Assembly: GCF_055900595.2 (NCBI RefSeq)
Contig: NZ_CM148325.1
Length of the DNA: 64,000 bases
Strand: one strand, 5' to 3'
Of this stretch, positions 9,492 to 40,127 are shown piece by piece (within the stretch, counting starts at the first letter, position 1; the number at the start of each line of letters is the position of its first letter). The notes beneath the pieces are model-generated. The model searched no databases and was not told where the DNA came from. It saw only the letters and a list, made by a program, of their open reading frames with translations. The translations under genes were made by a program, and so were the position numbers.

Positions 9492-10400
9492 ATGCAATTA
9501 CGTAAACCTGCCACAGCAATCCTGGCCCTGGCGCTTTCCGCAGGACTGGCACAGGCAGATGACGCCGCCCCGGCAGCGGGCAGTACGCTGGACAAAATCG
9601 CCAAAAACGGTGTGATTGTCGTCGGTCACCGTGAATCTTCAGTACCTTTCTCTTATTACGACAATCAGCAAAAAGTGGTGGGTTACTCGCAGGATTACTC
9701 CAACGCCATTGTTGAAGCAGTGAAAAAGAAACTCAACAAACCGGACTTGCAGGTGAAACTGATTCCGATCACCTCACAAAACCGTATTCCTCTGCTGCAA
9801 AACGGCACTTTCGATTTTGAATGTGGTTCTACCACCAACAACGTCGAACGCCAAAAACAGGCGGCTTTCTCTGACACTATTTTCGTGGTCGGTACGCGCC
9901 TGCTGACCAAAAAGGGCGGCGATATCAAAGATTTTGCCGACCTGAAAGGCAAAGCCGTAGTCGTTACTTCCGGCACTACCTCTGAAGTTTTGCTCAACAA
10001 ACTGAATGAAGAGCAAAAAATGAATATGCGCATCATCAGCGCCAAAGATCACGGTGACTCTTTCCGCACCCTGGAAAGCGGTCGTGCCGTTGCCTTTATG
10101 ATGGATGACGCTCTGTTAGCCGGTGAGCGAGCGAAAGCGAAGAAACCAGACAACTGGGAAATCGTCGGCAAGCCGCAGTCTCAGGAAGCCTACGGTTGCA
10201 TGTTGCGTAAAGACGATCCGCAGTTCAAAAAGCTGATGGATGACACTATCGCTCAGGTGCAGACCTCCGGTGAAGCGGAAAAATGGTTTGATAAGTGGTT
10301 CAAAAATCCAATTCCGCCGAAAAACCTGAACATGAATTTCGAACTGTCGGACGAAATGAAAGCACTGTTCAAAGAACCGAATGACAAGGCACTGAACTAA
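9492..10400 (+). CDS. gltI: Glutamate/aspartate ABC transporter periplasmic binding protein
   Basis: 302 aa from the ATG at 9492 (SD aggag at 9481..9485); signal peptide MQLRKPATAILALALSAGLAQA; the ORF-track start at 9417 is an upstream in-frame extension. Confidence 0.9.
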   Translation: MQLRKPATAILALALSAGLAQADDAAPAAGSTLDKIAKNGVIVVGHRESSVPFSYYDNQQKVVGYSQDYSNAIVEAVKKKLNKPDLQVKLIPITSQNRIPLLQNGTFDFECGSTTNNVERQKQAAFSDTIFVVGTRLLTKKGGDIKDFADLKGKAVVVTSGTTSEVLLNKLNEEQKMNMRIISAKDHGDSFRTLESGRAVAFMMDDALLAGERAKAKKPDNWEIVGKPQSQEAYGCMLRKDDPQFKKLMDDTIAQVQTSGEAEKWFDKWFKNPIPPKNLNMNFELSDEMKALFKEPNDKALN

Positions 10401-10556
10401 TTACAAGAACCAGGGGCGGAAATTCCAGCCCTCTCGATTGTTACGTAGCACGGACAGACTATACGCCTGATGGTCGTTCCCCATCGGGCCTGAAAACCGC
10501 AATACGCTGGGTAACAATCTTCGAGGGTAGCAGTTAACGCTGCTACCCTCTTTTTT
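10401..10556 (+). ncRNA. sroC: SroC-like sRNA processed from the gltI-gltJ intergenic region
   Basis: Intergenic segment immediately 3' of gltI ending in a strong Rho-independent terminator (gagggtagcagttaacgctgctaccctc + tttttt at 10523..10556); position matches the known origin of SroC in the gltIJKL mRNA. The 5' end is not determinable from sequence. Confidence 0.5.
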
Positions 10557-10569
10557 CTGGAGTAGATTT

Positions 10570-37024: not shown

Positions 37025-37990
37025 ATGAGTAAACCCATTGTGATGGAACGCGGTGTTAAATACCGCGATGCCGATAAGATGGCCCTTATCCCGGTTAAAA
37101 ACGTGGCAACAGAGCGCGAAGCCCTGCTGCGCAAGCCGGAATGGATGAAAATCAAGCTTCCAGCGGACTCTACACGTATCCAGGGCATCAAAGCCGCAAT
37201 GCGCAAAAATGGCCTGCATTCTGTCTGCGAGGAAGCCTCCTGCCCTAACCTGGCGGAATGCTTCAACCACGGCACAGCAACGTTTATGATCCTCGGCGCT
37301 ATTTGTACCCGCCGTTGTCCGTTCTGTGACGTTGCCCACGGTCGCCCGGTAGCTCCGGATGCCAATGAACCAGTGAAACTGGCGCAGACCATTGCCGATA
37401 TGGCGCTGCGTTATGTGGTTATCACCTCCGTTGACCGTGATGACCTGCGCGATGGCGGTGCCCAGCACTTTGCGGATTGCATTACTGCCATTCGGGAAAA
37501 AAGCCCGCAAATCAAAATTGAAACTCTGGTGCCGGATTTCCGCGGTCGTATGGATCGTGCTCTGGATATTCTGACCGCCACACCACCAGATGTGTTCAAC
37601 CATAACCTGGAAAACGTACCGCGTATTTACCGTCAGGTACGGCCTGGTGCAGATTACAACTGGTCGCTGAAGCTGCTGGAACGCTTTAAAGAAGCGCATC
37701 CGGAAATCCCGACCAAGTCTGGGCTGATGGTGGGTCTGGGTGAAACCAATGAAGAAATTATTGAGGTAATGCGCGACCTGCGCCGTCATGGTGTGACGAT
37801 GCTAACGCTGGGGCAATATTTGCAGCCAAGCCGCCATCACCTGCCGGTTCAACGTTACGTTAGCCCGGATGAGTTCGACGAAATGAAAGCCGAAGCGCTG
37901 GCGATGGGCTTTACCCATGCTGCATGCGGTCCGTTTGTCCGCTCGTCTTACCACGCCGATTTGCAGGCGAAAGGGATGGAAGTTAAGTAA
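37025..37990 (+). CDS. lipA: Lipoyl synthase (radical SAM)
   Basis: 321 aa; Cys clusters CPNLAEC and CTRRCPFC. Confidence 0.95.
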
Positions 37991-38020
37991 TCCTGTAATA
38001 ATTACTTACATCTGTCTGAT

Positions 38021-38050
38021 AAAAAACCCGCTTTTTGAAGCGGGTTTTTT
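38021..38050. terminator. Bidirectional intrinsic terminator between convergent lipA and tatE
   Basis: aaaaaa-cccgctttttgaagcggg-tttttt: perfect hairpin flanked by A- and T-runs. Confidence 0.8.
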
Positions 38051-38090
38051 GTATCGAACAAGATATTGAGGGAGCGTCCTGCTCGCCACG

Positions 38091-38294
38091 TCACTCTTTA
38101 TGAGAGAGCTTTTCAGCCTGAAGATCAACGTCTGCGCCTTTTTTCGCCGCAGCATCGTCATCATTCATCGCCTTCTTGAACCCTTTAATGGCCGCTCCAA
38201 GGTCTCCGCCCAGCGTACGTAACTTCTTAGTCCCAAACAGCAGAACGACCAGCGCCGCAACCACCAGCAGTTTGGTAATACTAATCTCACCCAT
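38091..38294 (-). CDS. tatE: Twin-arginine translocase subunit TatE
   Basis: 67 aa; N-terminal TM helix plus amphipathic helix ([33 protein letters not shown]). Confidence 0.95.
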
Positions 38295-38422
38295 AGATAC
38301 CTTCTTGACATATAACCGGCAACAGAACGCGCCTTAAAAACCAGAGAATATTAACGGTCATTCGACGCGCGCACACAATAGCAATCTGTAACAAGGTGAA
38401 TCAAGCGCCGAGTAAAAAAACA

Positions 38423-39211
38423 TCATAATAATTGCGGCGGCGCAAAGCGACGGTTGTTTAAGACGGGCAGTTGCGCGCGCACCTGACGCACACGTTCGGG
38501 CGTCACTTCCGCCATAATGAGTGCAGGCATTTCTGACGCTGCCGCAATGGTGACGCCAAAGGGATCTATAATCCGGCTTTGCCCGATATTTTTGTTCCCG
38601 CACTCCCCCGCCGCCACCATATAACAGGTGGTATCCAGCGCACGAGCGGCAAGCAACGTTGACCAGTGATGCTCTTTGAGCGGCCCGCGAACCCAGGCGG
38701 CAGGAAGTACCAGAATTTCAGCTCCCTGTAATGCCTGTGCCAGCGCCAGCTCTGGAAAGCGTAAGTCATAACAGGTCATCAGACCGACCTTCATCCCTTC
38801 CACCTCCAGTAACGGAGCTATTTCATTACCAGCATCAACATGGCGTGATTCCTGAATGGCAAATGCATCATAGAGATGCAGTTTGGCATAACGGGCGACG
38901 ATGTTTCCTGCCTGTAGCGCCACCAGCATATTCCATGCGCGCCCCGGCGTTGAAGGAACATGAATCGTCAGAATTGTCGTCATCATGTTACGTTTACTTT
39001 CTCGCCGTAAACGTCCGAGAAATTCGCCTTCCAGCAGCTGTGCTGATTTAACCGATAGATCTGCATCATGATCATCACGCGCCAACAATGCTTCCGGCAG
39101 GACAAACAGCGAAACGTCGTTTTCCGCCGCCTGCGCCATCAACGAGGCACAAATCTCAGCGTTCTTTTCCCACACAGATGTAACAGCAAACTGTCCTGCG
39201 GCAACCAGCAT
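38423..39211 (-). CDS. ybeM: Carbon-nitrogen hydrolase (nitrilase superfamily, Nit1/deaminated-glutathione-amidase-like); intact
   Basis: 262 aa from the ATG at 39211 (SD aggagg); catalytic Cys context [13 protein letters not shown]; uninterrupted reading frame here. Confidence 0.85.
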
Positions 39212-39306
39212 TGCCACCTCCTCCTGTCAGAGTCGTAAAATTCGCCAACGGCGATTATTCGGCGTTACACTTATCACTCATACAAATCAAATAGCAGGAT
39301 TTTGCA

Positions 39307-39690
39307 GTGTTACAACTTCTTTTAGCAGTTTTTATTGGCGGTGGTACGGGAAGCGTGGCGAGATGGCTGTTAAGTATGCGATTTAACCCGCTGCATCAGG
39401 CGATTCCGTTGGGGACGCTGGCTGCAAACCTGATTGGGGCATTCATCATAGGAATGGGATTCGCCTGGTTTAGCAGGATGACGAACATTGATCCAGTGTG
39501 GAAAGTATTAATCACCACCGGATTTTGTGGCGGTCTAACAACCTTCTCAACATTTTCGGCAGAAGTGGTGTTTTTGTTACAAGAGGGCCGCTTTGGCTGG
39601 GCATTACTGAACGTTTTCGTCAACCTTCTGGGGTCTTTTGCCATGACCGCACTGGCTTTCTGGCTGTTTTCGGCCTCAACCGCACACTAA
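39307..39690 (+). CDS. crcB: Fluoride ion channel CrcB/FluC
   Basis: 127 aa; four TM segments; conserved GxxGGxTTFSTF motif ([12 protein letters not shown]). Confidence 0.95.
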
Positions 39691-39694
39691 AGAC

Positions 39695-39726
39695 CAAAAA
39701 AAACCCGCTGATTAAGCGGGTTTTGA
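39695..39726. terminator. Bidirectional intrinsic terminator between convergent crcB and cspE
   Basis: aaaaaaaa-cccgctgattaagcggg-tttt hairpin with flanking A/T runs. Confidence 0.8.
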
Positions 39727-39743
39727 ATTCTTGCTGACGTATC

Positions 39744-39953
39744 TTACAGAGCGATTACGTTTGCAGCAGAAGGGCCTTTGGCACCGTTAGTGATTTCGAA
39801 CTCTACGCGCTGACCTTCAGCAAGAGTTTTAAAACCATTAGTCTGGATTGCAGAGAAGTGTACGAACACGTCTTTGCTGCCGTCTTCCGGAGTAATGAAA
39901 CCGAATCCTTTGGACTCATTAAACCACTTAACGTTACCTTTAATCTTAGACAT
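39744..39953 (-). CDS. cspE: Cold-shock-domain protein CspE
   Basis: 69 aa from the ATG at 39953: [20 protein letters not shown] with RNP1/RNP2 motifs; the ORF track extends further upstream. Confidence 0.95.
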
Positions 39954-40127
39954 CAAAATTACCTTTACATGAAAAATAGACACAAATGCTGTGTCGGTTA
40001 CCAGTACACCAATTGTGGTACGCTTTGTCCAGTGCAACTTTACTAAAAAGTGATAAAAGTCGCGTTATTTTTGATGTTAATTATTTTAGTCATTGATTTT
40101 AAAGAAGTTACTAAAATTTCATTTGTC

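Follow-up and report, generated by a model that had tools for sequence, protein, structure and literature searches.

An open ybeM reading frame, very probably a functional deaminated glutathione amidase gene, in a non-K-12-type Escherichia coli

Members of the nitrilase superfamily carry a Glu-Lys-Cys triad and pass through a covalent, Cys-linked acyl-enzyme during catalysis (PMC9913352). Among them, Nit1 and its yeast orthologue, the product of the NIT2 gene, hydrolyse deaminated glutathione (PMC5714238), a reaction that yields alpha-ketoglutarate and L-cysteinylglycine and is regarded as metabolite repair (PMC10452834). Eukaryotic Nit1 proteins (the mammalian enzymes; the yeast NIT2 product, structures 4H5U, 4HG3 and 4HGD; and the Nit domain of C. 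elegans NitFhit, 1EMS) fall into the same superfamily branch as E. coli YbeM and are assigned the same reaction, and the two share a predicted fold (TM about 0.9) and an active site of the Glu-Lys-Cys(+Glu) type. They are only 28-30% identical in sequence, however, and YbeM is shorter, without the yeast insertions, the Fhit fusion or the mitochondrial targeting. Peracchi et al. (PNAS, 2017) reportedly found the E. coli homologues of Nit1 to be likewise good deaminated glutathione amidases, and RefSeq, UniRef and later papers name E. coli YbeM a deaminated glutathione amidase. The bacterium synthesises glutathione, which is the source of deaminated glutathione. E. coli YafV, mammalian Nit2 and yeast Nit3 share with YbeM superfamily branch 10, the fold and the triad, but these omega-amidases are paralogous to it and have a different substrate, 2-oxoglutaramate.

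In K-12 MG1655 (NC_000913.3), ybeM was formerly split into ybeH and ybeM, and it is annotated as a pseudogene of 788 nt (b4581, 658031-658818). The same locus in a K-12-type strain is described by PGAP as "deaminated glutathione amidase, frameshifted". The gene, its functional assignment and its pseudogene status in K-12 are all already known and present in databases. A passage in a paper on MG1655 engineering names ybeM as an integration site, together with yncI, ycgH, ygaY and ilvG (PMC11731478). Such use of ybeM is consistent with its status as a K-12 pseudogene. We take all of these integration sites to be pseudogenes of K-12.

The window, by which we mean the whole 64,000-nucleotide stretch of DNA analysed here, contains ybeM as a single continuous frame preceded by a ribosome-binding site; gshA and gshB lie outside it. 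The two features are as follows.

38423..39211, minus strand: intact coding sequence of ybeM, 262 codons followed by TAA (from the ORF list and the sequence)
39216..39225, minus strand: Shine-Dalgarno region AGGAGGAGGT, (AGG)3-T, separated by 4 nt from the ATG of ybeM (read from the sequence)

According to the six-frame ORF list of the window, the start ATG occupies 39211-39209 and the TAA 38425-38423, with a product of 262 aa. The original prediction had described a continuous 262-aa frame at 38423-39211, and these coordinates are exact for the coding sequence including its stop; the strand, which had been left unstated, is minus. It had also credited the gene with a good Shine-Dalgarno sequence, and the stretch upstream of the ATG, GACAGGAGGAGGTGGCAATG, does hold a strong AGGAGGT that ends 4 nt before the start codon. 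A GTG in the same frame at 39217, two codons further up, would give a protein of 264 aa; it was considered as the start and rejected, as it falls within the Shine-Dalgarno sequence and the ATG is what RefSeq takes on identical DNA. In alignments, this region (39217-39225, minus strand) has three AGG units here versus two in K-12 and BL21, a 3-nt difference. An exact 64-mer with the (AGG)3 form is found in 846 of 5,423 complete E. coli genomes, apparently including UTI89-like strains.

The predicted membership of the nitrilase superfamily is borne out by a full-length match to the Pfam family CN_hydrolase (PF00795; E = 4.2e-41, 141.4 bits versus a gathering score of 23.2), in which residues 3-245 cover positions 2-255 of the 256 in the profile. 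The more specific label proposed at the outset, "deaminated-glutathione amidase-like", agrees with the NCBIfam model for deaminated glutathione amidase (NF033621), which the protein matches with 451.5 bits (cut-off 355) over residues 3-261 (profile positions 2-260 of 260). This is the sole NCBI curated model whose cut-off YbeM passes, the others scoring far below theirs; the YafV/omega-amidase model NF007757 gives a partial match of 61.5 bits where 249 are required, which places YbeM outside that family. When PDB entries are ranked by sequence, NitFhit comes first (1EMS, 1.7e-29), followed by the yeast NIT2 product (4H5U, 1.1e-26) and the K. lactis protein (7ELF, 1.3e-24), with the omega-amidases behind this Nit1 branch (mouse Nit2, 4.4e-22; yeast Nit3, 6.4e-20). 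YbeM thus appears to be nearer to the Nit1 orthologues than to Nit2 and the omega-amidases, by a modest margin. Relatives at E values up to 1e-10 numbered 4,360 among 1.84 billion cluster representatives.

The motif with the catalytic Cys spans residues 141-153 of YbeM, and four active-site codons were located by alignment with solved relatives.

39092..39094, minus strand: Glu40 codon, catalytic base, motif LPE, aligned with the LPE Glu of 1EMS and 4H5U
38882..38884, minus strand: Lys110 codon, catalytic Lys, motif YAKLHLYD, aligned with the KLHLFD Lys of 1EMS and 4H5U
38849..38851, minus strand: Glu121 codon, second active-site Glu, motif QES, aligned with the ES motif of 1EMS and 4H5U
38771..38773, minus strand: Cys147 codon, nucleophile, motif TCYD, aligned with the catalytic Cys of 1EMS and 4H5U

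The catalytic triad that had been expected is present, with Glu40, Lys110 and Cys147 all aligning with their counterparts in NitFhit and yeast Nit2; in the yeast Nit2 mutant C169S (4HGD), it is the substituted Ser that falls opposite Cys147 (codon 38773-38771). In a family alignment of 73 sequences (72 full-length homologues, 31-48% identical, plus the window protein), P39, E40, K110, C147, R151 and F152 never vary, and at least 90% of the sequences keep E121. The AlphaFold2 model of YbeM built from this alignment consists of alternating strands and helices (mean pLDDT 96.8, pTM 0.93), and a Foldseek comparison with the PDB matches it to solved nitrilase-superfamily structures at TM 0.86-0.91, which indicates the same fold. 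Nit2 from K. lactis and from yeast comes first (TM 0.89-0.91), followed by mouse Nit2, a plant N-carbamoylputrescine amidase and NitFhit. This order mostly agrees with that obtained from sequence, the exception being NitFhit, which here comes after mouse Nit2.

In the mechanism that we propose, the substrate would be deaminated glutathione, which is glutathione's 2-oxo analogue and arises from transaminase side reactions. Cys147 would attack the amide carbonyl of this compound with Glu40 acting as the general base, and Lys110 and Glu121 would help to hold the substrate in place and to stabilise the intermediate. The thioester acyl-enzyme formed in this way would then be hydrolysed, and the products, 2-oxoglutarate and cysteinylglycine, would bring a useless by-product back into metabolism. 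A triad alone cannot give substrate specificity, and an intact, catalytic YbeM might have a physiological substrate other than deaminated glutathione, such as 2-oxoglutaramate or a small amide. The aguB, YafV and nitrilase models do match the protein weakly and in part (E 1e-17 to 1e-12), and mouse Nit2 and N-carbamoylputrescine amidase are among the structural neighbours, at similar TM-scores. We nevertheless consider a different substrate very unlikely, as the deaminated glutathione amidase model alone passes its curated cut-off, the closest sequence relatives with structures belong to the Nit1 branch, and the protein is identical at 261 of 262 positions to one named deaminated glutathione amidase in Swiss-Prot/UniRef and RefSeq. 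In addition, E. coli has a separate Nit2-type protein, YafV, that is cited as the 2-oxoglutaramate amidase (PMC8711792). The window ORF is, with high probability, a functional allele of E. coli ybeM that encodes a cytosolic Nit1-type amidase (EC 3.5.1.128), and we infer both the enzymatic activity and the expression of this allele from its sequence. It is through curated database names that the window protein is connected to an E. coli protein of characterised function.

By BLASTP, the window YbeM is identical to the BL21(DE3) protein at 261 of 262 residues, and the one difference maps to the following codon.

38840..38842, minus strand: His124 codon (CAT), the one amino-acid difference; Arg124 (CGT) in BL21(DE3) and O157:H7

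The BL21(DE3) protein is WP_000959109.1, which is also the UniRef representative YBEM_ECO57, "Deaminated glutathione amidase"; it is the product of the same gene, with the same length and the same crcB-ybeM-tatE locus. The window protein itself is RefSeq WP_001305561.1 (262/262 identical), likewise named deaminated glutathione amidase, and its DNA is 100% identical in strain Z0117EC0005. This exact protein, with His124, occurs on at least 1,000 public contigs, where it bears the same name. Position 124 lies three residues after Glu121 in a variable column of the 73-sequence alignment, and Arg124 is commoner than His124. Apart from His124 and the third AGG in the Shine-Dalgarno region, nothing substantial separates the window allele from the known YbeM. 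At the DNA level, the window and BL21 genes differ by 9 synonymous changes and 1 non-synonymous change (pN/pS about 0.04), which points to purifying selection on intact ybeM alleles. Judged from this 9-to-1 ratio against BL21(DE3) and the CN_hydrolase match at E = 4.2e-41, the ybeM ORF is not a chance frame.

K-12-type strains are 98.3% identical to the window over a 1,001-bp stretch of the locus (coding sequence plus flanks), and the locus is orthologous. Both the pairwise and the five-way alignments contain a single internal gap between the window and K-12, the G at ORF nucleotide 200, in codon 67.

39011..39013, minus strand: Arg67 codon (CGT), whose middle G (39012) is lost in K-12 and related strains and present here

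The statement in the original prediction that ybeM is disrupted in K-12 was correct, since pseudogene b4581 lacks one G and is neither intact nor identical to the window allele; the alignment that had been suggested as a check places this lesion at codon Arg67, window position 39012. When translated, the K-12 gene switches frame at codon 67 and meets a stop after 75 codons, with the remainder in another frame. The same G at ORF nucleotide 200 is deleted in strain 300709, and the window does not have the K-12-type allele. The N-terminal fragment of K-12 keeps Glu40 and loses Lys110, Glu121 and Cys147, and the downstream fragment has Lys110, Glu121 and Cys147 without Glu40. Because the catalytic residues are divided between the two fragments, we infer that neither can be an active amidase. 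The K-12 gene also carries the substitutions V33A and V37A, neither of which is found in the window allele. We considered whether the K-12 lesion might be an artefact and rejected this, as the site is not a homopolymer and hundreds of independent assemblies share the deletion, which wild isolates carry too.

The ybeM locus was found in 5,424 of 5,426 complete E. coli genomes, and an exact K-12 80-mer across the deletion is present in 860 of these 5,424 (~16%). The remaining genomes are at least one position off the 80-nt probe, and among the matches listed they span 81 nt. Among the wild carriers of the deletion are isolates from human stool in Mozambique and Ecuador, both with the annotation "frameshifted", and further carriers come from river water and farms. 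In the extracted loci of K-12 and strain 300709, the deletion-bearing gene is positioned as follows.

K-12 locus L003, 3032-3819: deletion-bearing ybeM
Strain 300709 locus L004, 737-1524: deletion-bearing ybeM

A probe over V33A and V37A is matched exactly in 365 genomes, and 40 of the 40 matches listed look like K-12 laboratory derivatives. The Mozambique strain, on the other hand, bears the deletion together with Val33 and Val37, and it differs from K-12 by 2 non-synonymous and 0 synonymous changes. Because the deletion occurs there without V33A and V37A, it predates them; the comparison indicates that the codon-67 deletion is an older natural polymorphism, not a laboratory accident, and that V33A and V37A came later in K-12. 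Relaxed selection after the lesion would fit the 2:0 pattern of non-synonymous to synonymous changes, with recombination as another possible source.

Of 40 locus matches sampled across the spread of genomes, 31 span 1,001 or 998 nt, with no net frameshift, 8 span 997 nt, like K-12 one base short of the commonest length, and 1 is split. An intact ybeM is the common, majority state in E. coli, and presumably also the ancestral one. The suggestion that the open frame could serve as a strain marker holds to the extent that it excludes the K-12-type deletion lineage. As a positive identifier it is weak, because intactness is the majority state and the lesion is not specific to K-12 (860/5,424). An independent lesion is found in O166:H15 strain JNE21-003, in which the IS21-family element ISEc62 (istA/istB) is inserted near the 3' end of ybeM.

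NZ_AP041809.1, locus L009, 3090-6007: ISEc62-split ybeM, the 5' part annotated by PGAP as a 241-aa CDS

Five public proteins (P0016, P0020, P0022, P0031 and P0151) are YbeM-like but truncated or chimeric, each in its own way; among them are frames shifted near codons 118 and 144 and joins to unrelated sequence, which suggests either recurrent disruption or assembly errors. Strain PD007 was considered as a reversion of the K-12 deletion and rejected; it has a different, BL21-like haplotype and a one-base deletion of its own, located in an A5 run, which may be a sequencing error. This strain (NZ_CP120910.1), a "human milk" isolate, has MG1655-like coordinates and an MG1655-like genome length (4,641,666 bp), and its assembly may be reference-guided or contain errors. 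The weakest match, strain UTME-9, was left out, as all genes in the region are annotated as frameshifted there, a sign of a low-quality assembly.

The genes around ybeM make up the conserved core context lipA / tatE / ybeM / crcB / cspE / pagP, and several further features of the window were annotated.

37025-37990, plus strand: lipA
38091-38294, minus strand: tatE
39307-39690, plus strand: crcB
39696-40054, minus strand: cspE with its 5' leader, matching the Rfam cspA thermoregulator at full model length with 123 bits (gathering score 78)
10396-10558, plus strand: sroC sRNA, 174.8 bits
53125-53233, plus strand: enterobacterial rnk leader, 124.9 bits
59270-60490, plus strand: ybdN-like ORF, open, 406 aa

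The window is 99.6-99.7% identical over 25 kb to a few human and dog isolates, with identity of at least 99% in just 16 genomes, and the region around ybeM is ordinary core chromosome. Both sroC and the rnk leader are expected in a core region like this one, and no tRNA genes were found in the 64-kb window. The ybdN gene is annotated as frameshifted in E400634, the closest complete genome, and is open in the window. As crcB genes often carry a fluoride riboswitch, one was sought in the 95-bp divergent spacer between crcB and ybeM (39212-39306); no Rfam family matched there at E values up to 1, and there is therefore no riboswitch shared with ybeM in this spacer.

A sigma-70 consensus scan found no convincing promoter in the same spacer, and in a promoter and terminator scan of 38000-39800 the sites were no commoner than in shuffled sequence, with none positioned for ybeM. 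This lack of a clear sigma-70 promoter would fit a frame that is open in a gene already silent and decaying, an unexpressed relic that has yet to acquire a disabling mutation. The gene is also evidently dispensable, being frameshifted in the ~16% of complete genomes mentioned above and split by ISEc62 in O166:H15, with several more truncated or chimeric forms in public data. A relic of this kind would not, however, be expected to differ from BL21 by 9 synonymous changes to 1 non-synonymous change with all of its catalytic and near-invariant residues unchanged, nor to keep a strong Shine-Dalgarno sequence. K-12 provides the contrast, as its 2 non-synonymous and 0 synonymous differences from another deletion allele are the pattern expected after selection is lost. 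We consider it extremely unlikely that the window gene is such a relic, and we retain the reading of a functional ybeM allele.

The window thus represents a non-K-12-type E. coli with a complete gene for a metabolite-repair amidase, and the comparison pins the K-12 lesion down to one G lost from codon Arg67. The status of ybeM is a cheap lineage marker of the deletion-bearing clade. As the frameshift is natural and the gene has been independently disrupted elsewhere, K-12 is a poor model for the repair of glutathione damage. We tentatively raise the possibility, which we find somewhat doubtful at present, that ybeM is a recurrently lost gene of E. coli, with one old deletion in ~16% of genomes and independent IS and frameshift lesions in others. 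If this is true, K-12-like strains would be without deaminated-glutathione repair and would accumulate or excrete the metabolite, whereas strains like that of the window would not. The status of ybeM would then be a natural metabolic polymorphism, by which K-12 differs in a hidden way from the B or wild strains in laboratory use.
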